This document shows, one piece after another, positions 45,019 through 62,780 of a stretch of DNA of 62,833 nucleotides. Position numbers and translations under genes: made by a program. The stretch comes from Promethearchaeia archaeon (GTDB taxonomy: Archaea > Asgardarchaeota > Lokiarchaeia > Sigyniarchaeales > SOKP01). How positions within the stretch are numbered: the first letter of the stretch is position 1; every line of letters starts with the position of its first letter. Under the pieces are notes generated by a model, which was given only the letters and a program-made list of their open reading frames with translations, was not told where the DNA came from and ran no database searches. The stretch covers positions 1-62,833 of the forward strand of contig JAHQWH010000009.1 in NCBI GenBank assembly GCA_029856105.1, written 5' to 3'.

Positions 45019-45438
45019 TTAGTCACTTTCTAAAAAGCTTTGCATTTCGGTTAACTTTATTAAAAATTTTGGATTTTTCATTTTGATTTTGCGAGCTACA
45101 ACTTTCTTTATGATATCGCTTTGCGACAGTTTTCCATCGCCAATCTCTTCAAATAACGCTTTCGTCGTTTTCATCATTCCATTCCAACCAAGTTTTTCCT
45201 CTGTTAAGTCTTTCTTATCTTTGTTTTCAATTCCCTCAATGGAAACTGTTCCTTTGTTAACAGTTATTAAAGCGGCATACTGACCATCTTTTGGATTTAA
45301 TAAAATCTTAAAGGTTTCGTCAGCGAATTTCTCTTTAAATTTATCAATTGAATTTAAGGGGTTATAAAGATTAAAAACGCCCTCCGGATATGTTCCTTCT
45401 TTAATCTTACCAAGTTTACTTTCTGACATATTTGTCAA
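45019..45438 (-). CDS. SCP2 (sterol carrier)-like lipid-binding protein
   Basis: ALITVNKGTVSI, IGDGKLS...VVARKIKMKN pattern. Confidence 0.6.
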   Translation of the reverse strand: MTNMSESKLGKIKEGTYPEGVFNLYNPLNSIDKFKEKFADETFKILLNPKDGQYAALITVNKGTVSIEGIENKDKKDLTEEKLGWNGMMKTTKALFEEIGDGKLSQSDIIKKVVARKIKMKNPKFLIKLTEMQSFLESD

Positions 45439-45564
45439 TTCTCTTTCTGTAATTTTTATCGATATTTAAAGTTATATCAACTCTATGAAATATAAATGTT
45501 TTATTGTCCTAAAAAAAAGAAAGTTACTTTATCTTAATAAGAAGTAAGAATATTAGTTTTTATA

Positions 45565-45687
45565 TCACTTGAGTTTGGGCTTTCTTTTTAGAAATAATTT
45601 TTTATAAATCTTATTTGTTAGTGGAATAGTTTGAAGAAAATCAGCGTGACGATACTTATCCCCTTGAAGTTTAATCTGCTCTTGCAT
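45565..45687 (-). CDS. Small basic protein, 40 aa (MQEQIKLQGDKYRHADFLQTIPLTNKIYKKLFLKRKPKLK)
   Basis: Manual translation; GAGGT SD 7 nt upstream of the ATG. Confidence 0.5.
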   Translation of the reverse strand: MQEQIKLQGDKYRHADFLQTIPLTNKIYKKLFLKRKPKLK

Positions 45688-46004
45688 ACTAAATACCTCA
45701 ACATTATATATATTTCATAGTTTAACATATAAAGTTCGCATATTAAAGAATTAATATTAGAAAGAAATGTTAGAAATTACAGAAAATAAATACTCGTTAA
45801 TTCTAAATTCGTAAATTTTTTTCGTTAAATTTTCATCAAATTACATGCAATTTATTATTAAATAAAGCATCTAAATAATGCCTAATTAATACAAATAAAA
45901 AATTAAATGATTCAAAAAATTTTTAAACAAATATATGTTTAAGTAAACTTAATAATTCATCTAAATAAAAAGTTATTAAAATTTTTGCCCTTTTTTAATA
46001 AATA

Positions 46005-46787
46005 ATGCTTGCTGACAATCAATTAATTAAACGGCTTCAAAATGGAACGATTCGTGGAATAATCCTCGATTTTGATGGTACTATCCTCGATATCAGAAAA
46101 ACGCTTAAGGACGCAATAGAAGAAATATACGAGGAAAAACACATTTCAGCTGACATTGATAGCACAATACAAGAAATAGGGGCTCTAATGGAGACTATTC
46201 AAGGACTTCCGCTTCCAAAAATCGTATTGGAGTCTTTTAATTTGTTTAAATACATAGAATCGCTCCAACCACTAACATATTTAAAAAAATTACGAATAGC
46301 AACGAAAATTTTCACGCGTTATCTAGAGTACGCGAAAGACGCTTCTTTTTATCCAGAAGCAACGGAATTTATTAATAAATATAAAAAAACTTACGATTTA
46401 TTTATTGTCTCTCACAACCAGACTAAGAATATAATTCCTCACTTGGAAGAAAAAAAGGTAAAAAGCTTTTTTAAAGGAATTTTTGGAGCAGATCTTCTTC
46501 CCGCTCTAAAACCCGACCCAAACGCGTTAAACCCTGTTTTTGAAAGTTATAAATCCTGCAAGTTAAAGGAATTTGTAATGATTGGAGATATGCCTTCAGA
46601 TATTGAAGCAGGTAGAGAAGCTGGAGTTTGGACTATTGGTGTTGCGAGCGGAGTAAGTAAAAGAGAAATGTTGGCAGAATTTAACCCAAGCTTATTGATT
46701 GACTCGTTAGATGAATTAATTAAAATAATTGAAAATAAAGATTTATCAAATTCAAGTACTCAAAAAAAGATTGAGATAAAATCCTAG
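46005..46787 (+). CDS. HAD-family phosphatase
   Basis: DFDGT, VSH, KPDP, IGDMPSD. Confidence 0.92.
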   Translation: MLADNQLIKRLQNGTIRGIILDFDGTILDIRKTLKDAIEEIYEEKHISADIDSTIQEIGALMETIQGLPLPKIVLESFNLFKYIESLQPLTYLKKLRIATKIFTRYLEYAKDASFYPEATEFINKYKKTYDLFIVSHNQTKNIIPHLEEKKVKSFFKGIFGADLLPALKPDPNALNPVFESYKSCKLKEFVMIGDMPSDIEAGREAGVWTIGVASGVSKREMLAEFNPSLLIDSLDELIKIIENKDLSNSSTQKKIEIKS

Positions 46788-46791
46788 GAGG

Positions 46792-48477
46792 ATGAAATTA
46801 ATGGTGCTTAAAGAGGAATATAAAACTTCAGCAGATACAAGTATTATAAAAACTACTGAAGAAAAAGAAAAGGAAGATTTAGAGTTCAAGAAACGACACC
46901 AAAACTCGATGTATAACATTTTAAAATATAATCCAATCGATCCATTAAACGACCTCTATCGCCAAGCTATTGACCGATTGAACATTGGAGAAATAGAGGG
47001 AAAACTCCAATGGTGGGCGGCATATGTTTATATAAAGTTTTTTGCCCGAATACTCTGGAATTTTAAAGCAGAATATCCTTTAGGCAATTTATTTCCGGAT
47101 TATGGGGCAGGCATTCTTGTAGGAAGCCACGAGTCTCATTTGGACCCATTCTTCTACGGTGCTGCTTGTCAAAGAAGAATCCATTACATGAGTAAATTGG
47201 ATAATTTTAAAACTCCTTTAGTAAAAACGCTTTTTACAAATTTAGGAGCTTTCAAAATAGATCGTGAATACCCCGAACAGGGTTGGAACACCGCCAAAGA
47301 GATCCTCAGAAGCGGAGACTGGGTAGGAATTTTTCCTGAAGGTACGAGGTCTAGGGCAGAGAATGATTGGGAACTAGGAGAATTTAAAACGGGGGCAGTT
47401 CGACTCGCGATTGAAATGGGTGTGCCGATTGTTCCAATGGCAGTGATTGGGTCTAGAAACGCGTTACCAAAAGGTAATTTGGTCATGAAACCAACTCAAG
47501 TCAAAGTACGCGTAGGTGATCCGATTTACTACGATAAGTATAATATTGACGATGTTTCTTACGAAGAAATTAAGAGGCTAACAAATGAATTAAGACAGAA
47601 TGTTCTTGATTTAAGAGAATACGTCATTGTGGACACAAGAAAAAAGAAAAAGGAAGAAGAACTATCGATTGGTTCCCCTGAAGATGCTGAAAAACCCAAA
47701 AAGTCAAATTCATTTATGAGATATTTAAAAGATGTAGGAATGGGAACGCTACAACTTGCTGACGACCTCTGGTACTCCTTCATAAAATCGTTAGAAGTAT
47801 TAGGATTACGCGAACATTTTGCATCACCATCGCAAGCTATCTATGGGTGGGCAGTCCATAATTTAGGCAACTTAATGATACCATATAAAGCAATTGACTT
47901 TGAAAAATATATTCCTGATACCGGGGCAGCAATTTTTTGTACCAACCACAATTCTGAGTGGGACGTAATTATGACTGCGACTTGTATGACGTACCATAAA
48001 AAACGAATTCTTTACCAAATGGCGAAACAGGGTTTGTTTAAATTCCCAATCGTTAACGCTTGGGTTAGAACCCACCATGCGTTTCCACTAAAAAGGGGGC
48101 AACACGATGTCGATTCATATAATTACGCTAAGTATCTCCTTGATAACGGAGAATTGGTTATGATGTACCCCGAAGGAACGACCAATCCCGGGGGTGGTGA
48201 ACTCCTAGAGGGCCACACAGGTGCTATGCGATTAGCTATTGAAAAGCAGGTACCCATCTTATTAGTAGGAATTACAGGTACAGAAAATACATACCCAAAA
48301 CACGCTAAGATGTTAAACTTCTATAGAGGGTCTATATTAAAAGCAGGACCCCCATTCATGGAACATAAAAAACATTGGGGCAAACCAATGCCAGATTACG
48401 CCGAATTAAAGCGTTTAACAGATAATATGATGGCTCAAATTAAAGATTTGCTTTTATACGATAGCCCAGATGCCTAA
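46792..48477 (+). CDS. Tandem two-domain PlsC-type lysophospholipid acyltransferase
   Basis: Two HxxxxD (SHESHLD, NHNSEWD) and two PEGT motifs. Confidence 0.92.
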   Translation: MKLMVLKEEYKTSADTSIIKTTEEKEKEDLEFKKRHQNSMYNILKYNPIDPLNDLYRQAIDRLNIGEIEGKLQWWAAYVYIKFFARILWNFKAEYPLGNLFPDYGAGILVGSHESHLDPFFYGAACQRRIHYMSKLDNFKTPLVKTLFTNLGAFKIDREYPEQGWNTAKEILRSGDWVGIFPEGTRSRAENDWELGEFKTGAVRLAIEMGVPIVPMAVIGSRNALPKGNLVMKPTQVKVRVGDPIYYDKYNIDDVSYEEIKRLTNELRQNVLDLREYVIVDTRKKKKEEELSIGSPEDAEKPKKSNSFMRYLKDVGMGTLQLADDLWYSFIKSLEVLGLREHFASPSQAIYGWAVHNLGNLMIPYKAIDFEKYIPDTGAAIFCTNHNSEWDVIMTATCMTYHKKRILYQMAKQGLFKFPIVNAWVRTHHAFPLKRGQHDVDSYNYAKYLLDNGELVMMYPEGTTNPGGGELLEGHTGAMRLAIEKQVPILLVGITGTENTYPKHAKMLNFYRGSILKAGPPFMEHKKHWGKPMPDYAELKRLTDNMMAQIKDLLLYDSPDA

Positions 48478-48489
48478 ACGAGAATAAAA

Positions 48490-49566
48490 GTGGAACAAAT
48501 GGAAGCGCCTCTACAAACAGATAAGAAACGGATCAAAGTAGGGATACCAAGAGCACTTCATTTTTATAGATATTTTCCGTTTTGGAAAAAATTACTGGAA
48601 GAACTAAACGCTGAAATCATTATAAGTCCTCTTACAAACAAGAAAATCGTCGAAGAGGGCGTAACACACGGATTTGGGGAATTGTGTATTCCAGTCAAGA
48701 TATATTACGGTCAACTCTTAAAGTTGGTAAGAGATAATCCTGATTTAGACTTCATTTTTGTACCTAGGTATGTTTCGGAAGTAAAAGATTCGTACTTTTG
48801 CCCTAAATTTATTTCTTTACCAGACGTAATTAAAATTTTACCTGACATTCCAAAAATTTTAAATTTTGAAGTAAACGTTAAAGAGTTTCCAATATCGACA
48901 GCCGCTATTGAACTTGGAAAGCAACTAGGAAAAAGTCAAAGCAAAGCTTTAAATGCTTATAAAGAAGCTCAAAAATATTTCGACGAATATCACGACTTTC
49001 TTAGAGAGGGCGCCTCAGTTAACCACGCTTTAAGGTTAGTCGAAAGAAATCGCCCTTTTACCTTACCAAAAAGAAAAAGCCAAGGAGATATACGATTTTT
49101 GCTATTAGGGCATAGTTATAACATATTTGATACTTTTATTAACCTCGATTTTCAAAAAAAATTGATAGACCAAGGAGTTAATCACATTACCATCGAAAAT
49201 CTACCAGAATCTATTTTCGAGAAGCCCGTTATAGTGAACCCAAGAGGGGCAAAATTACAAAATTATTGGAGACACGAAGAGGAAATTATGCAAGCTATTC
49301 GATATTTCCTTACGAAAGGACGCGACGAAATAGATGGCGTAATTTTCTTAATCAGCTTCGCGTGCGGACCAGATAGCCTTATCTCTGAACTGATCATGAG
49401 AGACATGAAAGTCGTAGGACTTCCCTTTTTGGAGATCATAATGGACGAACACAGCGGTGAAGCCGGATTGCTCACAAGAGTAGAAAGTTTTGTCGAAATG
49501 ATCCGAAGAAAGAAAAAGGGATTGACAGTCGGGAAAAGAGATAAATTAACGATTAAATCTGCTTAA
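48490..49566 (+). CDS. CoA-activase-associated (DUF2229-type) subunit, 2-hydroxyacyl-CoA dehydratase / PlsA-like
   Basis: KVGIPRAL, LCIPVKIYYG, FCPKF, GHSYN, SFACGPD, DEHSGEAGLLTRVESF. Confidence 0.85.
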   Translation: MEQMEAPLQTDKKRIKVGIPRALHFYRYFPFWKKLLEELNAEIIISPLTNKKIVEEGVTHGFGELCIPVKIYYGQLLKLVRDNPDLDFIFVPRYVSEVKDSYFCPKFISLPDVIKILPDIPKILNFEVNVKEFPISTAAIELGKQLGKSQSKALNAYKEAQKYFDEYHDFLREGASVNHALRLVERNRPFTLPKRKSQGDIRFLLLGHSYNIFDTFINLDFQKKLIDQGVNHITIENLPESIFEKPVIVNPRGAKLQNYWRHEEEIMQAIRYFLTKGRDEIDGVIFLISFACGPDSLISELIMRDMKVVGLPFLEIIMDEHSGEAGLLTRVESFVEMIRRKKKGLTVGKRDKLTIKSA

Positions 49567-49658
49567 TAAAAAAACCATTGACTACTTTTTATAAGTCATT
49601 TTTAAAAATTCAAACGGAAAATATATTAAAATTAAAATATTTCATATGGGGTGATTTT

Positions 49659-49814
49659 TTGAGTAAACGAGGGAGAATGGGAGGATCTAAAGCTGCAGGA
49701 CCCGGTGGTAGTTGCAAGTGTCCTAAATGTGGCAAAACTATGAAACATCAAGTGGGCATACCTTGCTCCCAGCAAAATTGTCCAAAATGTGGCACTAAAA
49801 TGGTTAGAAAATAG
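49659..49814 (+). CDS. Small Cys-rich metal-binding protein, 51 aa
   Basis: GGGGTGA SD before TTG at 49659; GPGGSCKCPKCG...PC...CPKCG. Confidence 0.75.
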   Translation: MSKRGRMGGSKAAGPGGSCKCPKCGKTMKHQVGIPCSQQNCPKCGTKMVRK

Positions 49815-50088
49815 GTAGACATTTGTAAGGCTTCAAAATATAAATATTCTCCATTTTTTTTATGTTCATTTTGGAAAATAACATAATAACTTAATTCATA
49901 AAGATTAATTTTTTTATTGTGATAAGATAGGTTAATTGATATTTATTTTTTAATTATTAATTTTACTCAGTTTTTTTATTAAAATTATCATACAATTGAT
50001 AATCTATTTGTATTGGGTAATTTTTTAACTTGGGTAATTTTTTATTTAATCAAGATACTGACTATTAACTTGAGGATTTTTCCAAGAA

Positions 50089-50206
50089 ATGATAATTTCT
50101 TTTCCCCAATATGGGCCCCAAAACTCTATTTACAAGCCTTGGTCTAGATGTAGTTATTCCAGATCCAACGAATCGAGAAGCGATTAAGATTGGGATAAAA
50201 CAATCC
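50089..50206 (+). pseudogene. Degenerate 5' fragment of the 59450 dehydratase-like gene
   Basis: CTATTTACAAGCCTTGGTCTAGATG and TTCCAGATCCAACGAATCGAGAAGCGAT are identical to 59500-59560; carries a +1 frameshift and a 15-nt deletion. Confidence 0.85.
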
Positions 50207-50207
50207 T

Positions 50208-50291
50208 CGAATAGAATCCTTCACTGAAATGATTAAGCGCAAGAAGAGAATGCAAGCTGGAAAAAAGAAAGCGAAAAGAGGCGTGCAATAA
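50208..50291 (+). pseudogene. 3' remnant of another DUF2229-type subunit gene (RIESFTEMIKRKKRMQAGKKKAKRGVQ*)
   Basis: Matches the C-terminal RVESFVEMIRRKK of 48490-49566. Confidence 0.75.
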
Positions 50292-50317
50292 TCGTTTCGT
50301 GCAATAATCCCAACCCT

Positions 50318-52738
50318 GTGTTTGACATGAGCGAAGAAAAACTAGCAATACATAAAAGAAAAGTAGAAGCGATCTCTGAAATGGTTAGAAATGCGTACGA
50401 TAACGCGAAGCCGGGGGAATATTTCTCTCTAAAAAAGGCGAGTGTTTCCCACATGGCTCCACAGCCGGATAACCCGGTCTATAGCGACAAGCCGATAGAC
50501 GTGAGGTCACTTACAGACATTATTGAGATAAACACGGATACAAGGACATGTATTGCAGAAGCAGGGGTTACTTTTGTTAGGCTTGCAAGAGAAACATTAA
50601 AGTATGGGCTCGTACCGCAATGCGTTTCCGAGCTCAAGGGAATCACGATAGGCGGGGCAGTAGCAGGATGTTCAGTTGAATCCATGTCTTTCAAGTATGG
50701 GGGATTTTTCGATTCCTGTGAAGAAATAGAGATTGTGACAGGAACAGGTGACATAATGTTATGCACGAAAAGTGATAACCATGAAATATTCGAGATGCTG
50801 CACGGGAGTTTCGGCACGATTGCAATCATCACGCTCCTGAAGTTCAAGCTCGTTCCAGCAAAAGAGTGCGTCCGCATCGATTACATCCGTTACGATACTT
50901 TTAGTGAATACATGGAAGCTATCAAGCAACACTACGAAAAGCAGGATATTGAAATGATGGACGGGCTTATCTTCTCCGAGAATATGAACGTACTCTGCGT
51001 TGCCAGCTTCGTTGATGAGGAGGAAGCTCCTTACAAGAGTGAATATTTCTACGATATTTATTACAAAAGTGCGATGAAAAAAAAGCGAGACTTCCTCTCC
51101 ACCATAGACTATTTTTTCAGGTATGATGCAGATTGCCACTGGTCGATACGGAATGTTGCTGGAGGAATTTTTGAGAATAAAGTAGTCCGGTGGTTAGTAG
51201 GGCCCTTTATACTTGGATCGACAAATATTCTTAAGATCAGCGAACGATTGCCATTTTTAACTAAGAAGGGGGGAGAACCGGACGTGATTATTGATGTCTT
51301 CATACCAATCACTCACGCGGAAGAATTTTTCAATTGGTACCTGGAGTTATTTGATTACTTCCCGGTTTGGATCGTCCCTTACCGCATGCAAAAAAATAAA
51401 CTAGATGGGTACAAGTTCTACCCGTGGCTCAATCAAGACATGATCGCTCCCATCGAGGATGAGCTATTCATAGATTTTGCCATCTACGGGTTCGAGCAAA
51501 AAAGAAAGGGATTTAACTTCTATAAAGCGCTAGAAGAAAAGGTTCATGAGCTCAGGGGAATGAAAACCTTGATAACTCACAATTTCTACGAGGAAGACCA
51601 GTTCTGGAAGGTATATAACAAGAAATTTTACGATAAAGTGAAAGAACGAACGGATCCCAAGAACCTATTTCGACACTTGTACGAAAAGACGAATTATAAG
51701 AAAAAGACTGAAAAGACGAAAAGACTGAAGGTAGGTATCCCACGTTCCCTGTATTTCTACAAGTATTTTCCATTATGGGAAGGAATGCTTACAAGTCTTG
51801 GTTGCGAAGTTATTGTGAGTCCAGAAACAAACAAAGAAATTCTTACCAACGGATCTAATCAATCTGCAACCGATTTATGCATTCCAGTCAAGATTCATTA
51901 TGGTCATGTGAATTATTTATCGAGAAATCACCCCGATCTAGATTTTATATTTGTTCCAAGACTCATTAGTAAGAGTAATGATCATTATTATTGTCCGAAA
52001 TTCCTGATCCTTCCAGATGTCACTCAACACTCAGCAGTTTCTAATATTCCCGTTATTGAATGGATTTTTAATGCCAGGGAATATTCAATGATGCAATCAG
52101 CAATAGATTTTGGAAAAACATTAGATAAATCAAAAGAAGAATCAAAACTTGCGTATGAGAATGGATATAAAAAACTTGAAGAATTCCATGAGTTGATTGA
52201 GGATGGAATTCTTGTTCCTGATGCACTTTACAAAATGTATCCTTTTGAAAAATATCCAAATTATAAGTTTAAGAAAAGATTTCAACCTAAACTTAACAAA
52301 GATTATGAAAAATATCCACTTTCATTAATGGTTCTTGGTCATCCATACAATACTTATGAATCAATTATTAATCATGGATTAATGGATATTCTCAAAACCA
52401 ATTTTGTTGATGTTGTAACTGTTGAAAATGCTCCAAAGGAAATCTTCTCAAGAAGAGTTGAAATTGATGATAATTTTTGCAATTTCTGGGATAATGAAGA
52501 TGAATTGATTCAATTATCTGATTATGTTATCCATAATGAAGAGATTGATGGGGGTATTTTCTTAATCAGCTTTGCGTGCGGTCCTGATTCTTTAATTCAA
52601 GAATTGGTAATGCAGGATTTTGACATGAAAGATAAGCCTTTTATTAATCTCACATTAGATGAACACACTGGAGAATCTCAAATAACTACAAGAGTAGAAT
52701 CTTTTATCGAAATGATAAGGAGGAAGAAATACAAGTGA
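50318..52738 (+). CDS. Fusion: FAD-binding PCMH oxidoreductase (DHCR24 / TmsA-BfaA-like) + DUF2229-type subunit
   Basis: ELKGITIGGAVAGCSVESMSFKYG, GSFGT, FRYD, DPKNLFRHLYEK; then KVGIPRSL, CIPVK, CPKF, SFACGPD, DEHTGE. Confidence 0.85.
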   Translation: MFDMSEEKLAIHKRKVEAISEMVRNAYDNAKPGEYFSLKKASVSHMAPQPDNPVYSDKPIDVRSLTDIIEINTDTRTCIAEAGVTFVRLARETLKYGLVPQCVSELKGITIGGAVAGCSVESMSFKYGGFFDSCEEIEIVTGTGDIMLCTKSDNHEIFEMLHGSFGTIAIITLLKFKLVPAKECVRIDYIRYDTFSEYMEAIKQHYEKQDIEMMDGLIFSENMNVLCVASFVDEEEAPYKSEYFYDIYYKSAMKKKRDFLSTIDYFFRYDADCHWSIRNVAGGIFENKVVRWLVGPFILGSTNILKISERLPFLTKKGGEPDVIIDVFIPITHAEEFFNWYLELFDYFPVWIVPYRMQKNKLDGYKFYPWLNQDMIAPIEDELFIDFAIYGFEQKRKGFNFYKALEEKVHELRGMKTLITHNFYEEDQFWKVYNKKFYDKVKERTDPKNLFRHLYEKTNYKKKTEKTKRLKVGIPRSLYFYKYFPLWEGMLTSLGCEVIVSPETNKEILTNGSNQSATDLCIPVKIHYGHVNYLSRNHPDLDFIFVPRLISKSNDHYYCPKFLILPDVTQHSAVSNIPVIEWIFNAREYSMMQSAIDFGKTLDKSKEESKLAYENGYKKLEEFHELIEDGILVPDALYKMYPFEKYPNYKFKKRFQPKLNKDYEKYPLSLMVLGHPYNTYESIINHGLMDILKTNFVDVVTVENAPKEIFSRRVEIDDNFCNFWDNEDELIQLSDYVIHNEEIDGGIFLISFACGPDSLIQELVMQDFDMKDKPFINLTLDEHTGESQITTRVESFIEMIRRKKYK

Positions 52739-53766
52739 ATGAACCAGAATTTTTCAAGAATATTCTTTCAGATGATGTGGATGACAAGTTATATCTAGGA
52801 ATCGATGTCGGAAGTGTCTCCACGAAATGTGCAATAATTAATGAGAGAAATGAATTATTGTATGCTACCTGGACCAGAAATGATGGTTCTCCCATTGTTT
52901 CTACACAAGAAAATCTAAAATACATGGAAGAAGTCCTTCCTGATAACATCGAGAGAAATATTTGTGGTGTTGGGACAACAGGTTCTGCTAGGTATTTAAT
53001 AAAAGCTCTTATCGGTGCAGATATAGCAAAACCTGAAATAATTGCTCATGCAATTGGAGCTTCAACTTATACCCCGGATGTAAGGACGATATTAGAAATA
53101 GGGGGACAGGATAGTAAAGTTATCCTAATGAAAAATGGCATCGTAACAGACTTCAACATGAACAGCGTCTGTGCTGCAGGTACAGGATCTTTTCTAGATC
53201 ACCAAGCAGTTCGGATCAAGGTTCCAATTGAAGAATTTGGGGATTATGCTCTTCGGGCAGAAGAGGAGGTTTCAATTGCAGGACGATGCACAGTTTTTGC
53301 CGAATCTGATATGATCAGTAAACAACAAGAAGGATATTCTAAAGAATCAATTATCAAGGGATTGTGTAAAGCTCTTGTTAGAAACTACTTGAATAATGTT
53401 TGCAAGGGTAAAAAAATGTATCCTCCCTTCGTATTCCAGGGAGGAGTTGCAGCAAATTCCGGAATAAAAAATGCTTTTGAAGAAGAATTGGGGTATGAAG
53501 TCATTATTCATGAAAACTATTACGTGATGGGAGCATTTGGTTCAGCCATTTTGGCAAAGGAACATGTAAATGGACAGATATCTTCTTTTCATGGCCTAAA
53601 AGTTAGTGAAATGAACTTGGCTCAAGGTTCATTTGTCTGTCCTGATTGTGCAAATAGATGTACAATTAAATACCTTGTCAGGAAAGAAGATAAAAGTAGA
53701 GTAACTGGAAGAGAAAAGGATGATGCGATATTTGCACGATGGAATAGTAGGTGCGGTAAATGGTAA
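52735..53766 (+). CDS. Acyl-CoA dehydratase activase (BadF/BadG/BcrA/BcrD ATPase, Fe-S)
   Basis: GIDVGSVSTK, TTGSAR, EIGGQDSK, CAAGTG, RCTVFAES, CPDCANRC. Confidence 0.93.
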   Translation: MNEPEFFKNILSDDVDDKLYLGIDVGSVSTKCAIINERNELLYATWTRNDGSPIVSTQENLKYMEEVLPDNIERNICGVGTTGSARYLIKALIGADIAKPEIIAHAIGASTYTPDVRTILEIGGQDSKVILMKNGIVTDFNMNSVCAAGTGSFLDHQAVRIKVPIEEFGDYALRAEEEVSIAGRCTVFAESDMISKQQEGYSKESIIKGLCKALVRNYLNNVCKGKKMYPPFVFQGGVAANSGIKNAFEEELGYEVIIHENYYVMGAFGSAILAKEHVNGQISSFHGLKVSEMNLAQGSFVCPDCANRCTIKYLVRKEDKSRVTGREKDDAIFARWNSRCGKW

Positions 53767-55094: not shown

Positions 55095-55110
55095 GAGGCT
55101 TAAGGCAAAA

Positions 55111-55563
55111 CTACTTTCGCAACGAAAAGTAAACCTTCAACAGCACCAAGCTCCAGAAAACGGTCCAAACGCTAATTATTAAAGGCATAATGTCATTTGC
55201 AGAAATCGAGTAAAGAAATCTCGTAAAGGCATAATAGGTGGCGTAGACGCTGCAAGTAGCAATAAAAATTATCAAAGGGACGATAACAAAAGCTAAATCG
55301 GCTTTAAAGTGTTTTAACTGACTACTTTTAGGTTTTGTTTTTTTACGAGTTGCTAAATTAAGCGTTTTCTTTTTCAAATATTTAACCGTAAAAACTATTC
55401 CAAGCGCGAACAACCCCGATAAAAGGACGGTAAGGAAGAAATAAAACGCTACTAAGGTCGGTTGCTGCTCGAGTAAGACGTTTAAGCATTGGTAAGGCAC
55501 GAAATAGCCGAACGCTAAAAAGCCAAAAACAATGGTAAAAATTACTAGCGGAAAATACAGCAA
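55111..55563 (-). CDS. Four-TM membrane protein, possibly 5'-truncated
   Basis: Hydrophobic segments; overlaps the start of the divergent ORF. Confidence 0.6.
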   Translation of the reverse strand: MLYFPLVIFTIVFGFLAFGYFVPYQCLNVLLEQQPTLVAFYFFLTVLLSGLFALGIVFTVKYLKKKTLNLATRKKTKPKSSQLKHFKADLAFVIVPLIIFIATCSVYATYYAFTRFLYSISANDIMPLIISVWTVFWSLVLLKVYFSLRK

Positions 55564-58500
55564 ATGTTTTAGTTGTATTGATCTTAGTGCAAACCCGATT
55601 CGATTTACTAAGTTGCACGCCCTGCTCGGCGAGCTTACGCTTACGCTTACGGTACCTTTAAACGCGAAGTTAGCGAATATTTTAAACGCTCTTTATTTCG
55701 AGATTCAGCGCGTAGAAAGTGAGCCCGATAGTTCGGGTTGCTCCTATTACGTCGTTTTCCAGTTTAATATCGAGAAGTACCGCTCGATCGACGACCTTCG
55801 AGACCTCACCTCGGAACAGGTAAATAAGATCGCCACCGCGCAAGCGATAGAAGCTTCTATTCTCGAGTACAATTACCAATTTAACCTCGCAGTTCAGACT
55901 CAGATGAGCTACCACGAGCTATTTTACACCGGGATAGTTACGGCTGTATCCACTGCTATTACTATGGGTGCTACTTTAGGCGTCGGAAAGGTAGTTGAAT
56001 TAGCAGGAAGCCTAACAGGTACCGCTGCGAAAGAGTTGAGCAAGTCCGCTTCGAAAACGCTTTTGGGCCTTTTACAACCCACCGCTGGGTTTAGCTCTTG
56101 GGGCGTATTGTATACCGTGGCTAAAGAGATCGGTCAAGAAGTATTAATAGACCCTTGGATCGAGAGCGCGGTTTCTGGAATGGTTAGGCGCGCGGGAGGG
56201 GACGCTATGCTACAGATGGTGCTCAGTTCGGTCGCGGAGAGCTTGAGAGAAACGCTCACCGGACCTTTTACTAACCTATTTAGCTCCCAGCAATCTGAAG
56301 GCGCGTCTTTATACGAGCAACTCGACGCTAAATATTTCTCAAGCGGTTTAAAACCAACGGTCCAAGACGTTCTCACTGTTTTTAACGAGTACAGAACGGA
56401 AATTGAAGTGCAAATAGAACAACATAGAGGTGATCTGAAATTGCTCGGTGGAGCCACGAGAGCTATTAGTTTTGTGTCAATAGCTTTAGGTTTTACCGCT
56501 TCGCAATTTCTCGGACCCATTAGCGCCTTAGTGTACTCAACGCTTGCAACCTATTGCTTCTCAGAAGACATTTCGCTTAAAGACGCGTTCAAGCAAGCTT
56601 TTAGCCCTATTAAAGCGGCTATAAGCAATAGTAAAATCGGAGACTATGTGCAAAACAACAAAAAGAAAGTGTTAGGTCTTGTCGGTATTGGCGCGCTGTC
56701 GGCTACAATGACGGGATTGCAAGTATTATTACCCTCTTTAAACCTTCTCTGGAGCTTTCTACCCGGAGTAGGCGTGCCGATAACGATAGGGATGGTTCAA
56801 AATAAAAAATTAGATTCTAAAGAGGAGATAGTCCATTATAACAGATGGTTAACAGATCGTATAAAGTCTTACTTAGACAACCTTCCTAATAGGATTAATT
56901 ATTTATTTGATCCATATAAAGCTTTTACAAAGATGGGCAGTCTTCTCGGTCAGAAGGATTCTTACTTCCTCGAGCAAAGACGGTTGAAATGGGCTAAGAG
57001 AGTTTTAGCTCAGACAGTACTCGATACTATGAGTTCAAGTTTGAAGCAGAAAATTGAAGAGTGGTCTGGCGAGTTTCCACAATTAGAAGAAGATTTATTC
57101 AAAGTTTACTCTGATCTGATTAGTTTTGTTGACGATTATCAAAGAATCTTAAATCCTAAACCTTCTCCACGGTATCAGATGTATAATCACCATCCAAATT
57201 TCAATAGAAATTTCTTCTCTGAGATTACGACCGCTGAACAAGCATACTGGCTTGGATTTATAGCAGCTGATGGTTATATTAGTGTAGAGCACAAAAAATA
57301 TGGAGATTATTATCGTATGGGCATAGGGATATCTACCAAGGACGAAACTGAATTTGGTCTTTTGACGAAGTTTTGTAAAGCTGTAGGACTAAATCCAAAA
57401 TATATAAGCACTAGACCAGTTCGTTGCGATTTTACGGGGAAAGATAGTTTAATTAGCGAGATAAGATGGGGCGATCAAGAATTTGCTCAAGACCTTATTG
57501 ACCTCGGCATAGAGTATGATTTCGTCGAATCCAAAGGGAGGAGAGTGAAAGTAGCAACATTGCCTGAATTCGCCAGCAGAGAATTAGCTTTAGCTTATCT
57601 TTTAGGATTCTACGATGGAGATGGTTCAAAAGGTTTAAATAGCCAAGATAAGAGTATTTATCCCACAGTTTCTTCTGAAAACAGAGAATTCTTGTATCAA
57701 TTAAAGAATTACTTTGGAATTAAAAGCAAAGTAACAAAAGCTACCGTTGAAAGATATGATCACAGAAGGGATATTATTGTAAGAAGTACCCAGCACAGGC
57801 TCTACTTGGAAATACCTCTCTTTAAAGAAATGATGGAAAATTATGGAAACAGTCTAGAAAGGAAAAGAGAAAAGCTCGAACGACTCGATCATTATGGAGT
57901 GTCTTCCACTCGGTATTTCTTAAGACAAGTTCTTAAAAGGGATTTATTAGAAGCAATGTTAGAGATTATATCTCCTAATAAGATTGGTAAGATTTTAGGC
58001 GTAAAAGGTGAGACAATAGCTAGGTTTGCTCGAGACGAGTATGGGCTTTCAATCCCAAAGACTGCAGGTGAGTATCAATCGATTCAACATTCACTTAGAA
58101 ATTTAAGAGTAGATTCTGAGTATTACGCAGATTATTTCCACTATACAAACTTCCTTGGTGGCTTAAGACGTGGTTCACAGGGATTATTTGGGGATTTTAA
58201 TTTTAGATTACATGAATACTACGATACAGAGTTAATTAAAGAGCTAGTGAGTCAGGGTATCAAAGTCGACGAAACCAAATCGGTAGCTTTCGCTCGAAAT
58301 CGAGGAGTTGTAGATAAAAACGGAAAAGTAATAGAAAATCCTAGAATTATTTGGTTAACGCAGGGAACAGCAAGGAGAGGTCTTGACCATATTTTACTTC
58401 GTCACGGTGAGGGTGGCATCCCAAAGAAGAAATTCAGCACTATTTTTGGTATATCAGACGACGCTGAAACTATTGGCAACTTTATTTTTTACGCTATTAC

Positions 58501-58657
58501 TAAATTTCCAGTTCACTTAAAATTACCAGGAGCTGGGGGACGGTCTACACTTTATGTGTATCAAATTCGGAGAAAAGGTGAAATTAATTATTTGAAAATT
58601 CTAGTAGACGAAGAGGGAGAAATTGTTACGGCATACCCTGATAGGAACGAAAACTAG
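55532..58657 (+). CDS. Polymorphic-toxin-like protein: hydrophobic helical region + two-motif LAGLIDADG domain + C-terminal nuclease-toxin-like tip; N-terminus probably truncated
   Basis: AYWLGFIAADG and AYLLGFYDGDG; tip IIWLTQG...GLDHILLRHG...GEIVTAYP. Confidence 0.7.
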   Translation: MVKITSGKYSKCFSCIDLSANPIRFTKLHALLGELTLTLTVPLNAKLANILNALYFEIQRVESEPDSSGCSYYVVFQFNIEKYRSIDDLRDLTSEQVNKIATAQAIEASILEYNYQFNLAVQTQMSYHELFYTGIVTAVSTAITMGATLGVGKVVELAGSLTGTAAKELSKSASKTLLGLLQPTAGFSSWGVLYTVAKEIGQEVLIDPWIESAVSGMVRRAGGDAMLQMVLSSVAESLRETLTGPFTNLFSSQQSEGASLYEQLDAKYFSSGLKPTVQDVLTVFNEYRTEIEVQIEQHRGDLKLLGGATRAISFVSIALGFTASQFLGPISALVYSTLATYCFSEDISLKDAFKQAFSPIKAAISNSKIGDYVQNNKKKVLGLVGIGALSATMTGLQVLLPSLNLLWSFLPGVGVPITIGMVQNKKLDSKEEIVHYNRWLTDRIKSYLDNLPNRINYLFDPYKAFTKMGSLLGQKDSYFLEQRRLKWAKRVLAQTVLDTMSSSLKQKIEEWSGEFPQLEEDLFKVYSDLISFVDDYQRILNPKPSPRYQMYNHHPNFNRNFFSEITTAEQAYWLGFIAADGYISVEHKKYGDYYRMGIGISTKDETEFGLLTKFCKAVGLNPKYISTRPVRCDFTGKDSLISEIRWGDQEFAQDLIDLGIEYDFVESKGRRVKVATLPEFASRELALAYLLGFYDGDGSKGLNSQDKSIYPTVSSENREFLYQLKNYFGIKSKVTKATVERYDHRRDIIVRSTQHRLYLEIPLFKEMMENYGNSLERKREKLERLDHYGVSSTRYFLRQVLKRDLLEAMLEIISPNKIGKILGVKGETIARFARDEYGLSIPKTAGEYQSIQHSLRNLRVDSEYYADYFHYTNFLGGLRRGSQGLFGDFNFRLHEYYDTELIKELVSQGIKVDETKSVAFARNRGVVDKNGKVIENPRIIWLTQGTARRGLDHILLRHGEGGIPKKKFSTIFGISDDAETIGNFIFYAITKFPVHLKLPGAGGRSTLYVYQIRRKGEINYLKILVDEEGEIVTAYPDRNEN

Positions 58658-58741
58658 AATCCCCACGCACTACCTAAATTTAAATTAGAATTGTTCTTTT
58701 TTTTTATTAATTATTAATTTAATTAGCATTTTTACGGAGTT

Positions 58742-59284
58742 TTGGTTTTGAGGGTATTTGTATCAGATGTTATCGTTAAAAAGGATAAAGATGGCTACGA
58801 TTACTACTGGGTTGTTGGAAACCTTCAGAGTGGGATGGAAGTTATTATCGACGATTATTACTTTGATCTTCGCGAGTGGATAGGTCAAAGCGTTGAAATG
58901 TTGCTGTCATTTTTGCGGTCACCTTACAGCGAGCTCCAGAGAGGTATTTGCAACAAATTATTTTTACCGTTTAAGTATTATTCCGTGGAGCTCATTGACG
59001 AGTTGTTAGAAGAGAAGGGCGTCGTCTCAACCGGCAACGAAAGAGTTGTAATCTTGACTGGTGAATTTATTGATTCCTATGCTATCCCCAAAAAATGGGC
59101 TTCTTTCACTCAACGAGACTTGTTTAGAGTTTTGTACAAGGAACCGTCTGCTCTAAAAACTGAGGACGGAGCGTTCCTTCTATACCCCTTTCATTTGCGA
59201 AAGGCAGTTCCAATAGAGAGATTTCCTCAGGAAGTAACAGTGGCGGGAAGTTTGAATTTAGAAGCCTGGATTCCAAGCCATTGA
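58742..59284 (+). CDS. Hypothetical protein, candidate immunity protein
   Basis: Directly downstream of the toxin tip; GGAG SD before TTG; no recognised family. Confidence 0.55.
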   Translation: MVLRVFVSDVIVKKDKDGYDYYWVVGNLQSGMEVIIDDYYFDLREWIGQSVEMLLSFLRSPYSELQRGICNKLFLPFKYYSVELIDELLEEKGVVSTGNERVVILTGEFIDSYAIPKKWASFTQRDLFRVLYKEPSALKTEDGAFLLYPFHLRKAVPIERFPQEVTVAGSLNLEAWIPSH

Positions 59285-59449
59285 TGTTGGCTTGGTTTTA
59301 ACCTTAACAATCTGAAAGAAACAGACTATTTAGCGAGGGATTTGGAAAATTACTTTTTTATCATACTATTGCGAATCTGTTTGTAATGGGAAAATTTTTA
59401 TTTTAAACTGTGTTATTTGATTAAATACTTAACTAGGTAAAAATACATC

Positions 59450-60670
59450 ATGTTAATATCATTCCCTAACATGGGGCCTAACTGGGTAGCTTTTAAAACG
59501 CTATTTACAAGCCTTGGTCTAGATGTTGTAGTTCCAGATCCAACGAATCGAGAAGCGATAAAGATTGGAGTCAAGTATTCCCCCGAATTCGTGTGCTTCC
59601 CGTTTAAAGCGACTATTGGAGATTTCGTGAATGCTATAGAAAAGGGAGCAGATACGCTAATCATGGCAATAGATTGCGGACCGTGTAGATTTGGCTTTTA
59701 CGCGAGCGTTCAAGAACGCATTTTAAAAGATATGGGTTATAAAGACATTACGGTTATCCCCCTTGACCAAGCAGACCTTTTAGATTTTAAATGGGTCAAA
59801 ACTCTTCAAGAAGTTAGCGGTCGAAAGGATTTATTTATGTATTCAAAATTCGTTAAGGCTGTTATTATTTTTCTAAAGAAAGCTAAACTGTTAAACGATA
59901 TTCAAACTGCCGAAGGTATCTTCCGAGCTTACGAGCGTAATCAAGGAGATACAACGGATTTGATTAAAAACTTATTGGATAAGCTTGATCAAGCTAATAC
60001 GCTCCCAGAATTGAGAAAATTTAAAAGCGTTATTAAGCAAGATTTTAGCAATTTAGATATTGATAAAACCCGAACTCCTCTACGGGTGGGTGTTTCGGGG
60101 GAGATTCACATTAACTTGGAACCCTATGTAAATTTAGATATCCGTAGAAAGCTGGGTGAGATGAACATTGAAGTACACCAAAGCTTGAGCTTATACGATT
60201 GGGTCGTCCATAAATTCCATTTAAATTATCACAGAAAGTGGTTGGAACACCTTTCCCATCCATACATGCCCATGGACATTGGCGGTGAAAGTTTTGAGCT
60301 TTTAGCTTAAAACCATCTTTGCCAATGGGTGTTAGGTGAATATATAGACAAAGCTCAAGCGGGGTTTGATGGCTTCGTTCATCAATATCCGTTCTTATGC
60401 CTCCCCGAAGTGACGGCTCGGACGATTTTAACTAATAAACTTAAGGGAATTTACGATCTTCCCATCATTTACTTCTCTTTCGACGAACAGAGTGGATTAG
60501 GTGGCTTCAGAACTAGGTTAGAAGCATTTTCAGATCTAATGTATGGTCGTAGGAATAAAGAAATTGAAACTAACGCCAAATTCATATCAAATGGTAATAA
60601 AAAGATTTATCCGCATTATGGCAATTTATTTTATAATGAATGCGTTCAATTAATTCAAAATTCGGTTTAA
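59450..60670 (+). CDS. 2-hydroxyacyl-CoA dehydratase-like / PlsR-like subunit interrupted by a 30-nt BHB intron; join(59450..60289, 60320..60670), 396 aa
   Basis: The two track ORFs (59450-60310, 60329-60670) are halves of one protein; the spliced junction PMDIGGE^CQWVLGEY aligns without gaps to paralog PMDCGGEAQWNMGSY. Confidence 0.9.
60290..60319 (+). other. Putative mRNA intron, 30 nt (AGUUUUGAGCUUUUAGCUUAAAACCAUCUU), canonical bulge-helix-bulge
   Basis: Outer helix CAUUGGC/GCCAAUG, bulge UU^U, central GGUG/CAUC, bulge AA^A, inner stem GUUUUGAGC/GCUUAAAAC; contains an in-frame UAA. Confidence 0.9.
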
Positions 60671-60688
60671 TAATAAAAGTGAGATTAT

Positions 60689-61714
60689 ATGGTTGAAGTT
60701 ACTGAAAAAATTGCTAAAGAGAGGAAAAAAAAAGATGCTTTCCTTGGTATTGACATAGGAAGCGTGAGTTGCAAATTCGTTCTAATGGATAAAGATGGAA
60801 ATTTACTTACCAGCGTATTTTTACGAAATAGAGGTTCTCCCATCGACTCAGCCAAGGCAGGAATGGCAGGGTTACGCGATAACATAGAACAAAGTGAAAA
60901 TTTAGGCGACTACGAGATACGTTGCTGTGGTACTACTGGTTCGGCACGGTATTTAACAAAAGCAATCGTAGGTGCCGATCTCGCTAAAACTGAGATAATA
61001 GCTCACGCTGTTGCAGCACAGACCATCTATCCCGATGTAAGAACGATTTTAGAAATTGGTGGTCAAGATTCGAAAATAATTCTTCTACGGGACGGAATAA
61101 TTGTAGATTTTGCGATGAATTCTGTGTGCGCTGCGGGAACGGGTTCTTTTCTCGATCATCAAGCAGCGAGACTTGGGATTCCTATAGAGGAGTTTGGCGC
61201 TTACGCTGTAAAATCGAAAAATCCTGTGAGTATAGCTGGAAGATGTACTGTATTTGCAGAATCCGATATGATTCACAAGCAAAATGCGGGGTATTCTAAA
61301 GAAGATATTATTGCTGGTTTATGCGATTCACTTGTTCGCAATTATATGAACAATGTAGGTAAGGGTAAAACCTTGGAAGAACCTATTGTGTTCCAAGGCG
61401 GCGTTTCTTACAACAAAGGGATCATTGAAGCATTTGAAAGACATTTAGGTTGCAAAGTAATTGTTCCTAAATATAACGTCCTAATGGGGGCTTTAGGAAT
61501 GGCAATTTTAGTTAGAGATTTCTATTTAGAGAACGAACATCAAACTGTATTTCGAGGACTCGAAGTAGCTGAAATTGAATTCACGACCTCAGCGTTCAAC
61601 TGTGGAGACTGCCCCAATAATTGCGAAATAGTCCAAGTAAAGATGCCCCAAGAGGGAAATAAAATTATAGCTCGCTGGGGCTCTCGTTGTGGTAAATGGG
61701 ATCAAGTAGATTAA
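60689..61714 (+). CDS. Acyl-CoA dehydratase activase (BadF/BadG/BcrA/BcrD ATPase, Fe-S)
   Basis: GIDIGSVSCK, EIGGQDSK, CAAGTG, RCTVFAES, CGDCPNNC. Confidence 0.93.
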   Translation: MVEVTEKIAKERKKKDAFLGIDIGSVSCKFVLMDKDGNLLTSVFLRNRGSPIDSAKAGMAGLRDNIEQSENLGDYEIRCCGTTGSARYLTKAIVGADLAKTEIIAHAVAAQTIYPDVRTILEIGGQDSKIILLRDGIIVDFAMNSVCAAGTGSFLDHQAARLGIPIEEFGAYAVKSKNPVSIAGRCTVFAESDMIHKQNAGYSKEDIIAGLCDSLVRNYMNNVGKGKTLEEPIVFQGGVSYNKGIIEAFERHLGCKVIVPKYNVLMGALGMAILVRDFYLENEHQTVFRGLEVAEIEFTTSAFNCGDCPNNCEIVQVKMPQEGNKIIARWGSRCGKWDQVD

Positions 61715-61875
61715 TTTCGAGTTTTATATTCTGATCTTTTGATAACATACTTTTCAAACTATTATTGTATTTACAATCTTTAAATTAGATAAATGAATAT
61801 TTGAATAAAATAAGAAAAAGCATATCTACTAAAGTTATTAAAATATTGTCCAATTTTTAATAAAAGAGAAGTAAA

Positions 61876-62070
61876 ATGACAGAATTTTTTAAGCAATTAA
61901 AAGACTTGGGCGGGGAATTTCTCGAGTCCTTGCAACATAAAACAAAATTATCGACAATATTTGATATTTATTTAGAAAAAGTAATCCCTTCATTTGTTTC
62001 CGAAAAAGAGTTAAAGGAATATTACGAGAGACGGATGGAGGAAGTTAATAATTTCATAGACAAACTATAA
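61876..62070 (+). CDS. Small helical hypothetical protein
   Basis: 64 aa, co-oriented within the lipid cluster. Confidence 0.6.
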   Translation: MTEFFKQLKDLGGEFLESLQHKTKLSTIFDIYLEKVIPSFVSEKELKEYYERRMEEVNNFIDKL

Positions 62071-62084
62071 ACGAGGGGAAAATA

Positions 62085-62780
62085 ATGGTTGAAACATCTT
62101 CCGAGGAGAATGAAACGAAAGGAAAAGATAAGGTGCTTAGTAAGAATCTTATGGAAGATATTTTTTACGCAGTTACCAAAGGTTTAGGAAACTTTGGTTT
62201 AACGGCATTCGCAGACTTACAAATTGAAGGGCGGGAAAATGTACCTATTATGGGAAGAGCGATTTTAACTACGATTAGCCACAACGCGTTAAGAGATATG
62301 GCGATTATAAGTCAAGTTACTGGACGAAGAGTTCACTTTATGGTCCATCATAAACTAATGAAGAATCAAATGTACGGCCCCGTTCTTAAGTCGTTAGGCA
62401 TGTTTCGCAGTACCCTCGATAAGGACGATACTATACCTATAGATAAAGTGTTCCACTATCTTAACGAAGTTGGGGATCTTGTAGCCATGACGCCGGAATC
62501 AAAACTTACACCCGAAATTCAGGTGAAAGCAATGGCGGGAATCATTAAATTTGCGGTTGCTGGAAAAGCGCCTATAATCCCCATAGCAATATACACGGAA
62601 AACGCGAAAATTTTAGGTATGTTTAAAACACAGGGGTTAAGAGTAAAAATCGGGACCCCACTTAAGGTAGAGAAACGATTGTCTCGACCAAAATATCGAG
62701 ATGAGAGATACGAACTCGCTGAGGATATATTAAGAATTATTGATTCCCTTAAACCACAACCCGATAATGAATTAGAATAA
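62085..62780 (+). CDS. Divergent PlsC-type acyltransferase
   Basis: IEGRENVP, SHNALRD, TPES (for PEG), APIIPIAI, VKIGTP. Confidence 0.8.
   Translation: MVETSSEENETKGKDKVLSKNLMEDIFYAVTKGLGNFGLTAFADLQIEGRENVPIMGRAILTTISHNALRDMAIISQVTGRRVHFMVHHKLMKNQMYGPVLKSLGMFRSTLDKDDTIPIDKVFHYLNEVGDLVAMTPESKLTPEIQVKAMAGIIKFAVAGKAPIIPIAIYTENAKILGMFKTQGLRVKIGTPLKVEKRLSRPKYRDERYELAEDILRIIDSLKPQPDNELE

Follow-up and report, generated by a model that had tools for sequence, protein, structure and literature searches.

The enzymes Ger (Tmari_0479 of Thermotoga maritima and SHJ90043 of Desulfatibacillum alkenivorans) and PlsA/PlsR (CPE1194/1195 of Clostridium perfringens) are assembled from three module types, and Ger and PlsA turn sn-1 acyl esters into ethers (PMC13159169, PMC9702350). 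In Ger the modules are arranged as BBDHDDH, of which “BBD” is kept in all confirmed alkyl-ether producers (PMC13159169), and among the papers searched no DUF2229 protein other than Ger and PlsA was found with a described function. The present study concerns a locus with the same module types in an Asgard archaeon, Promethearchaeia archaeon (assembly GCA_029856105.1, contig JAHQWH010000009.1, positions 1-62,833 of the forward strand; this whole stretch of 62,833 nucleotides is called the window below). Between positions 45,019 and 62,780, genes for such iron-sulfur subunits and their activases stand together with acyltransferase genes of the PlsC family. Judged from sequence, the locus encodes a split, PlsC-linked variant within the PlsA/Ger superfamily, the ester-to-ether pathway predicted earlier from the same DNA is partly supported, and the PlsC linkage provides good guilt-by-association for a glycerolipid substrate.

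The gene map, based on a listing of open reading frames (ORFs) and on Pfam and NCBIfam profile scans, contains two complete sets of three genes, each with a DUF2229 subunit (DH), a partner subunit (R) and an activase (B), all on the plus strand. The first set comprises DH1 (48490-49566), a stand-alone subunit of 358 aa with a DUF2229 match (PF09989, 148 bits) and an HGD-D-like C-terminus; R2 (59450-60670), the second R subunit, recognised from its ORF and Pfam matches and broken by an in-frame TAA; and the activase of the ancestral set, B2 (60689-61714; PF01869, E 3e-47; TIGR00241, 200 bits). The second set, FAD~DH2-B1-R1, comprises an 806-aa protein (50318-52738) in which a FAD_binding_4 domain (PF01565, E 3e-14) is fused to a second DUF2229 subunit (PF09989, 151 bits), the acyl-CoA-dehydratase-type activase (ATPase) B1 (52735-53766; PF01869, E 6e-47; TIGR00241, 188 bits) and R1 (53760-55094), a PlsR-like partner subunit of 444 aa. 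The single three-subunit enzyme of the original prediction, a note made earlier from the same DNA, is thus replaced by two paralogous DH/R/B sets, and in one of these the DH subunit carries a fused DHCR24-like flavin domain. Upstream of DH1 on the plus strand lie a gene for a HAD-superfamily phosphatase (46005-46787; PF13419, E 3e-23; PF00702, E 9e-17), which is the first gene of the conserved operon, and PlsC2x (46792-48477), a tandem two-domain PlsC-family acyltransferase of 561 aa with two PF01553 stretches and a TIGR00530 match of 151 bits; PlsC1 (62085-62780, plus strand; PF01553, E 1.3e-9), a single-domain acyltransferase of 231 aa, lies downstream of B2. Intergenic distances of -7 to 18 nt are compatible with an operon. 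All genes named in the original prediction (SCP2-like, HAD, double PlsC, DUF2229, dehydratase-like, activase and PlsC) are present at or near the positions it gave, and its list lacked FAD~DH2, the second set, a LAGLIDADG-containing block and a duplicated R2 start. Its statement that all of these genes except SCP2 are co-oriented is correct; the only other minus-strand ORF among the mapped genes is a 150-aa membrane ORF inside an insert.

The iron-sulfur subunits carry DUF2229 over its full length in both DH1 and DH2 (cut-off of PF09989, 29 bits), and the stand-alone, single-domain activases B1 and B2 correspond to the BcrAD_BadFG module (PF01869; cut-off of TIGR00241, 125 bits). PF06050 was found in DH1 and DH2 only in the last 60-80 residues (profile positions ~262-342), with 28 bits, borderline against its cut-off of 28.4 bits; the match of R1 was longer yet below the threshold, at 23.5 bits. 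Weak PF09989 and PF06050 matches mark both R1 and R2 as PlsR-type second HGD-D-like modules. The best PDB sequence match of the DH1 C-terminus was the 2-hydroxyacyl-CoA dehydratase beta subunit 3O3M, with E 0.002 over 60 residues. Because DUF2229 is full-length while PF06050 covers the C-terminal end only and the PDB match reaches just this E value, the subunits belong to the DUF2229/PlsA-Ger superfamily and not to the Hgd- or Bcr-type enzymes, and the modular composition proposed earlier (activase, DUF2229 and an HGD-D-like module, as in PlsA/PlsR and Ger) was borne out by the profile matches. Nor is the enzyme an amino-acid-fermentation dehydratase, given the confinement of PF06050 to the C-terminus and the lack of CoA-transferase or electron transfer flavoprotein (ETF) genes nearby; no CoA-transferase was seen in the Asgard or bacterial neighbourhoods examined. 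The 2-hydroxyacyl-CoA dehydratases (HgdAB/HgdC, HadBC/HadI) and the double-cubane cluster proteins do share with the Loki system an activase and a heterodimeric, Cys-ligated iron-sulfur core, as well as weak similarity in the C-terminal ~60 residues (PDB 3O3M, 7YYL), but the Loki subunits carry DUF2229 instead of full-length PF06050 and lack a CoA-transferase context.

Three cysteines, in the motifs CxPxK, xCPKF and FxCGPD, are invariant in all DH sequences of the two clades described below, fused bacterial forms included, so that this triad is common to the PlsA/Ger architecture and the Loki system, and the R subunits keep an invariant triad of their own (EFVCFPFK, GPCR and PFTCxPE). The predicted complex of DH2 with R1 reached an interaction prediction score from aligned errors (ipSAE) of 0.77, against 0.00 for the best control; among solved complexes, 58 of 80 attained the mark used, as did 2 of 110 mismatched pairs. 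The runs agreed in at least 92% of contacts, the predicted local distance difference test (pLDDT) of the partner was at least 85, and all six Cys motifs lay inside the predicted interface. Since related dehydratase heterodimers have already been solved, this pass may reflect likeness to the solved 2-hydroxyacyl-CoA dehydratases more than constitute proof.

Conservation of the gene order was followed by tblastn of the window proteins on 40 Asgard loci. The order appears clean in a metagenomic contig, L009, which carries HAD, PlsC2x, DH1, FAD~DH2, B1, R1, R2, B2, a gene for a 64-aa protein and PlsC1, and the full core HAD-PlsC2x-DH1-R2-B2-64aa-PlsC1, without the FAD~DH2 set, was recovered in six other loci; this core is the ancestral Lokiarchaeial arrangement. 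PlsC2x adjoins DH1 in 20 of 20 loci of the archaeon’s own family, distributed over 8 genera, and the HAD gene adjoins PlsC2x in most of them. The synteny with PlsC, put forward earlier as a check, therefore came out positive, both within the family and in more distant Lokiarchaeia: PlsC-DH-R-B was also found in a second family (~45% identity), two further families (41-44% identity) carry PlsC2x-PlsC1-HAD and DH-R-B in the same loci, ~0.8 kb apart. A ~1.3-Mb genome (GCA_964457955.1, locus L016) has a compact PlsC-DH-B-R operon. Two other Asgard families carry DH-R-B at ~33% identity with no detectable PlsC nearby. Genes of the DH1 type occur in 58 of 68 genomes of the own family and in 7/7, 1/1 and 1/1 genomes of the next families; the sampling of many other Asgard families gave none (0/76 in one, for example). 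DH1 orthologs across Lokiarchaeia are 67-95% identical; internal stops flagged in some of them as possible further introns proved to be terminal, and such introns were rejected.

The acyltransferases themselves differ in their motifs. Both domains of PlsC2x carry the catalytic motif HX4D and the (F/Y)PEGT motif of PlsC/LPAAT (HESHLD/FPEGT and HNSEWD/YPEGT, with HX4D at residues 113 and 386), and the only PDB match of this protein was T. maritima PlsC (5KYM, E 3.6e-11). PlsC1 has HX4D in the form HNALRD and a degenerate second motif. A genome-wide profile search found three PF01553 domains, all of them within this operon.

Further relatives were collected in several ways. A HMMER search with DH1 gave 2654 relatives, the best 150 of which consisted almost wholly of stand-alone proteins (300-370 aa) and DH-R fusions (~700-770 aa), with no ~1400-aa fused protein among those 150, and a homolog search with R1 for longer proteins gave one fused protein only (P0243). 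A genome scan then provided 80 bacterial loci, in a sample containing no locus from T. maritima or C. perfringens, which fell into two classes: 17 with a fused BB-DH-R protein (~1400-1460 aa where complete) and 63 with split DH-R-B operons, the latter in Clostridia, Dehalococcoidia and others. The window proteins are 26-33% (DH), 21-24% (R) and 36-45% (B) identical to the fused class and 30-38%, 29-37% and 46-56%, respectively, to the split class. In a DH tree of 73 sequences (IQ-TREE, LG+C20 with posterior mean site frequencies, PMSF; support by the Shimodaira-Hasegawa-like approximate likelihood ratio test, SH-aLRT), the fused sequences, including Loki genes that join two activase modules to DUF2229 (BB-D), were separated from all split sequences at 99% SH-aLRT. 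All PlsC-linked Asgard DH sequences (DH1, DH2 with L016, and those of other Lokiarchaeial families) formed one clade within the split sequences, also at 99%.

The split operons of Thermoanaerobacter, Caldanaerobacter, Fervidicola and Dehalococcoidia, which correspond to the “additional PlsA homologs” of PMC13274423, are thus the nearest non-Asgard relatives of the Loki system, having the same three-gene architecture and belonging to the same clade. They differ from it in lacking PlsC, HAD or FAD partners nearby, and the Asgard PlsC-linked sequences form a subclade of their own. No PlsC was detected by tblastn at any of the 80 bacterial loci, and when 113 ORFs neighbouring 20 of the split operons were tallied by Pfam, they proved to be sporulation or housekeeping genes, with no lipid genes among them; linkage to PlsC is therefore a peculiarity of the Asgard subclade and of L016. 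Sporulation genes (spoVA, gerA) flank the split operon in several Clostridia, and no metabolic partner is conserved.

With the superfamily assignment, the PlsC-linked Asgard subclade and the location of the genome’s only PlsC domains in this operon taken together, ester-to-ether reduction of acylglycerolipids by DH/R/B is the best reading of the locus, held tentatively and at slightly less than an even chance; both the substrate and the chemistry we infer from the relatives and neighbours of these genes. According to this reading, the PlsC enzymes would esterify a glycerol phosphate or lysolipid backbone, and the HAD enzyme would take off a phosphate. The activase would feed a low-potential electron into the DH/R clusters in an ATP-dependent manner, and the DH/R heterodimer would then carry out the reaction of PlsA/PlsR and Ger, in which an acyl ester is reduced to an ether of the vinyl or alkyl type. 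The flavin domain fused to DH2 would, in the second set, go on to saturate the vinyl ether or a different double bond in a lipid. The accessory genes of lipid type, namely the DHCR24-like FAD domain and an adjoining gene for an SCP2-fold protein, fit this reading as well. The scheme of acylation followed by reduction in the original prediction accordingly keeps its superfamily and its PlsC linkage, with the reaction itself a predicted one and an orthology with PlsA/Ger unsupported by the tree.

Several points weigh against ester-to-ether reduction. The window DH subunits lie in the split-operon clade and not in the fused two-activase clade, which has the validated architecture, and the identity of DH and R to the fused bacterial forms is lower than that to the split operons. 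Orthology with PlsA or Ger is not shown because of this position, and in the phylogeny, suggested earlier as a check, the subunits do not group with the fused clade. Tmari_0479, SHJ90043 and CPE1194/1195 are not among the sequences of the tree, and their place in the fused clade is deduced from their published architecture. The split clade has no characterised member, and in bacteria its operons have neither PlsC nor any other lipid gene in their surroundings. According to PMC13274423, sequence does not allow PlsA and Ger to be told apart, and it is unclear what PlsA homologs do that have no activation domain; many of these operons do have a separate, adjoining activase gene. No GpsA C-domain was found in the 92%-complete genome, so that the glycerol-phosphate backbone is a presumed one. 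Finally, the lipid analysis of a cultured Lokiarchaeon, as far as it is cited in PMC13400652, gave archaeal lipids only.

Direct comparison with PlsA/PlsR and Ger gives a similarly divided picture. The three module types, the DH Cys triad and an anaerobic host are common to all, and so is a link with glycerolipid esters, which is drawn for the Loki system through PlsC synteny. In contrast to the fused BB-D(-H...) protein, the Loki system consists of three genes with a single activase each, its DH subunits belong to a separate clade (99%), and its identity to the fused forms is 21-33%. Moreover, the Loki operon adjoins acyltransferases and a HAD gene, for which the 80 bacterial loci examined gave no counterpart, and one Loki copy is fused to a flavin reductase domain; the Loki activity is a predicted one. 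No BB-D gene was found in the organism’s own genome, where the activases are separate single-domain genes and not part of the BBD fusion characteristic of Ger. Such a fused two-activase-DUF2229 gene (865 aa) stands with a 462-aa gene beside DH1 in five other Loki genomes, in place of the FAD~DH2-B1-R1 set. Ger homologs have been reported in Lokiarchaeota and Heimdallarchaeota (PMC13159169); because a homolog had to cover at least 30% of a long fused query there, these homologs are probably the fused BB-D genes and not the split subunits. PlsC and PlsY genes as well as Ger homologs have already been published for Asgard archaea, as isolated hits. What appears to be new, within the papers searched, is the linkage in one operon, the separate split clade, the fusion with the FAD domain and the R2 intron.

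An alternative is that DH/R/B are radical dehydratases or reductases that alter the acyl chain at the thioester stage, before or after its transfer by PlsC, giving unusual ester lipids and no ethers. Fold and cofactor logic are indeed common to the 2-hydroxyacyl-CoA dehydratases (the 3O3M match with E 0.002 and the TIGR00241 activases), PlsC enzymes use acyl-CoA or acyl-acyl carrier protein, and in one Asgard locus, L001, a 3-hydroxyacyl-CoA dehydrogenase gene adjoins DH1, with thiolase genes ~8.5-10 kb upstream; the absence of a characterised member from the split clade (PMC13274423) leaves further room for such chemistry. What makes this alternative unlikely is the full-length DUF2229 match beside a PF06050 match limited to the last 60-80 residues and at or below the cut-off, together with the neighbourhoods, in which no conserved CoA-transferase, ETF or acyl-CoA dehydrogenase gene stands beside the operon in either the Asgard or the bacterial loci. 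In addition, the DUF2229 proteins with a described function in the papers searched all act on lipid esters.

The lipid genes elsewhere in the genome bear on where the substrate could come from. Two tandem PlsY-like genes (401 and 402 aa) were found at positions 860-3460 of contig C215 (locus L170), with PF02660 matched in the first ~190 residues only and C-terminal halves without a family match; an alpha/beta hydrolase (BD-FAE) gene adjoins them. A GGGPS gene for archaeal lipids is present, and a search for glycerol-1-phosphate dehydrogenase with PF13685 gave unspecific matches. Upstream of the operon, two MFS transporter genes lie on the minus strand (42049-44791), and one or both of them recur beside the operon in nine of the loci. 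Their best NCBIfam similarities include the organophosphate:phosphate antiporter subfamily (PgtP/GlpT type; TIGR00881, E 1e-14), far under the cut-off; they might bring in a backbone resembling glycerol phosphate, GpsA not having been detected in this genome.

The adjacent 139-aa protein, encoded on the minus strand at 45019-45438, has no match in Pfam, PF02036 included, and its designation as SCP2-like in the original prediction was confirmed at the level of the fold. An AlphaFold (AF2) model built from 28 homologs had a mean pLDDT of 90.9, and its top Foldseek matches were all SCP2 folds (probability 1.0, template modelling score, TM, 0.5-0.67), among them the SCP2 domains of alkylsulfatases, AF1534, yeast and human SCP2, and UbiJ. 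This family occurs in 77 of 91 Lokiarchaeia genomes, often in several copies per genome.

These genes would also suit a salvage or remodelling pathway for exogenous bacterial lipids, in which the MFS and SCP2 proteins import lysolipids or glycerol phosphate from a partner, PlsC re-acylates them and DH/R/B remodels the esters, with no de novo synthesis. In addition to the recurrence of the MFS genes, their weak antiporter likeness and the missing GpsA, this is favoured by the Aas model NF006386 (lysophospholipid-reacylating), which is the second-best NCBIfam match of both PlsC proteins, far under the cut-off, and by an AMP-binding gene that adjoins the MFS genes in L002. However, the transporter and Aas similarities all remain far under the family cut-offs, and the two PlsY-like genes suggest de novo acylation, so salvage as the purpose of the operon seems decidedly improbable.

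The R2 gene of the ancestral set requires separate consideration, since its reading frame holds a TAA. Over its whole length, R2 can be aligned with the 391-aa ortholog of L009, which is uninterrupted; the one exception is a run of exactly 10 extra codons that contain this stop. Exon 1 (59450-60289), with the N-terminal PF09989 match, and exon 2 (60320-60670), which continues in the same reading frame and carries the C-terminal PF06050 match, flank a 30-nt segment (60290-60319), all on the plus strand. Around this segment, the RNA is predicted to form a bulge-helix-bulge (BHB) structure of the hBHBh' type, composed of a 7-bp exon helix (CAUUGGC/GCCAAUG), a 4-bp helix (GGUG/CAUC), the 3-nt bulges AAA and UUU, and a 9-bp inner stem, with a stability of -24.7 kcal/mol (z -4.3) equalled by 0 of 200 shuffles. 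A cut between the second and third bulge bases removes exactly 60290-60319, the predicted junction GAA|TGC CAA TGG is the sequence of the intron-less orthologs in three genomes, and the protein deduced after removal aligns without gaps with the L009 ortholog. The segment thus has the structure and the exact junction expected of a canonical BHB intron, from which we infer that it is spliced, and the earlier claim that one subunit needs intron splicing is upheld on these grounds. Recoding of the stop as selenocysteine or pyrrolysine was rejected, the codon being TAA and lying inside the 10-codon insert.

Archaeal BHB introns occur in protein-coding genes, for example, in crenarchaeal cbf5. The predicted R2 intron shares with the introns of archaeal protein genes the hBHBh' motif, in which 4 bp separate two bulges of 3 nt, and the in-frame excision, and differs from them in being just 30 nt long, in lying in an Asgard metabolic gene and in being confined to one of the 41 genomes of its genus; it was absent from the 22 other genomes of the genus that gave a match. 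That the insert instead disabled R2 and left the ancestral set a pseudogene replaced by the FAD~DH2-B1-R1 cassette, as its restriction to one genome of 41, the functional replacement set directly upstream and the other insertions at the locus (the duplicated R2 start and the LAGLIDADG block) might suggest, is very unlikely in view of the canonical hBHBh' motif with a stability unmatched by 200 shuffles, the cut sites that restore the ortholog sequence to the base, and two fully conserved exons with no further lesion.

The FAD~DH2-B1-R1 set is an extra cassette placed between DH1 and R2 in some genomes. Its proteins are 94-97% identical between the window and L009 (97% for FAD~DH2, against its 809-aa ortholog), compared with 72-87% for the flanking genes, and at the DNA level the cassette (window 50206-55099, L009 10977-15888) is 96.8% identical, compared with ~76% for the flanking operon genes. 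Because these identities are far above those of the flanking genes, the cassette must have been exchanged recently. A third genome, G113, carries a related copy (89-94% protein identity) in another arrangement, and the comparisons together indicate that the cassette moves between Lokiarchaeial lineages. Upstream of it, the R2 upstream region and the first ~35 R2 codons are duplicated (~49973-50227, plus strand), as seen from a blastn match to the L009 R2 start, from a 74-nt repeat (50120-50193 versus 59495-59568, 93% identical) and from a visible R2 ORF fragment; this duplicated start is a remnant marking the cassette insertion. The proteins of the L016 operon are the closest relatives of the cassette (57-66% identity), which suggests an L016-type organism as its origin.

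The FAD_binding_4 domain, at window positions 50318-51700, occupies about residues 1-460 of the 806-aa protein. Its first 445 residues have stand-alone homologs of ~445 aa with 45-62% identity in Asgard archaea, Spirochaetales and Deltaproteobacteria, and over 98% of its length the domain shares 56% identity with a protein (P0136) that is annotated as Delta(24)-sterol reductase in the anaerobic protist Anaeramoeba flamelloides. The stand-alone homologs are common in Asgard archaea (Sigyn-, Promethearchaeota), and the gene neighbourhoods of two of them showed nothing informative. A link between Asgard archaea and eukaryotes, or horizontal gene transfer, is possible for the DHCR24 family. Identification of the domain as alkyl-dihydroxyacetone phosphate synthase (AGPS) was rejected, with E 3e-5 against 2.6e-19 for cytokinin oxidases and DHCR24-like full-length relatives. 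With the FAD-dependent C=C reductases of the DHCR24/DWF1 type the Loki domain shares FAD_binding_4, a likeness that rests on an annotated and not a characterised DHCR24, and it differs from them in that it belongs to an anaerobic archaeon and is joined to an iron-sulfur subunit. By analogy, the fusion of a putative C=C reductase to a PlsA-like subunit suggests vinyl ether saturation, a role offered here as a hypothesis only. A “yet-unknown enzyme” that turns vinyl ethers into alkyl ethers is called for in PMC13274423. The broader proposal that Lokiarchaeia make non-isoprenoid acyl and alkyl glycerolipids beside archaeal lipids, with FAD~DH2 as a two-step machine, and thus that enzyme, in which the iron-sulfur core would form the vinyl ether and the flavin domain would saturate it, is, for the present, doubtful.

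The remaining features of the locus appear peripheral or uncertain. A block at 55111-59284, which is not present between R1 and R2 in L009, contains ORFs of 150 aa (minus strand), 1041 aa and 180 aa (both plus strand). A paralog of the 150-aa membrane ORF, with 81% identity, lies on contig C31, the 1041-aa ORF combines a hydrophobic, transmembrane N-terminal half with an internal LAGLIDADG domain (PF14528, residues 685-760), and the 180-aa ORF had no family match; the block looks like a mobile or polymorphic-toxin-like insert outside the lipid system. The 1041-aa ORF was rejected as an intein or intron of a subunit, being without dehydratase similarity and absent from L009. The 64-aa gene between B2 and PlsC1 (61876-62070, plus strand) gave no family match in the profile scan and is conserved at this place in 8 loci of the own family from 5 genera (55-89% identity), as well as in L009. 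A 78-aa Cys-rich ORF downstream of DH1 (49578-49814, plus strand), with two CxxC pairs (CKCPKCG ... CPKCG) and weak, sub-threshold Zn-ribbon matches, also occurs 3' of DH1 in a 95%-related contig, L010, and is not present in L009; it could encode a small zinc-ribbon protein or could have arisen by chance, and its membership of the system is uncertain. The window runs to the contig end, and its positions 53749-62833 recur with 99.98% identity as contig C26, an assembly duplicate.

The origin of bacterial-type membranes in an archaeal host is a central open problem of eukaryogenesis. The PlsC genes of Lokiarchaeia are not isolated; they share a conserved operon with genes from a separate, split branch of the PlsA/Ger superfamily, and in this genome they are the sole genes of the PlsC family. 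Bacterial-style ether lipids in the closest archaeal relatives of eukaryotes thereby become directly testable with a defined set of 7 to 10 genes, and there is reason to re-analyse Asgard cultures with ester-preserving lipidomics. Moreover, the FAD~DH2 fusion is a candidate for the missing vinyl-ether saturase in the biosynthesis of bacterial ether lipids (branched glycerol dialkyl glycerol tetraethers, brGDGT). If Lokiarchaeia do make such non-isoprenoid acyl and alkyl glycerolipids with this operon, the split, PlsC-linked clade would represent a pathway crossing the lipid divide that is native to the closest archaeal relatives of eukaryotes.

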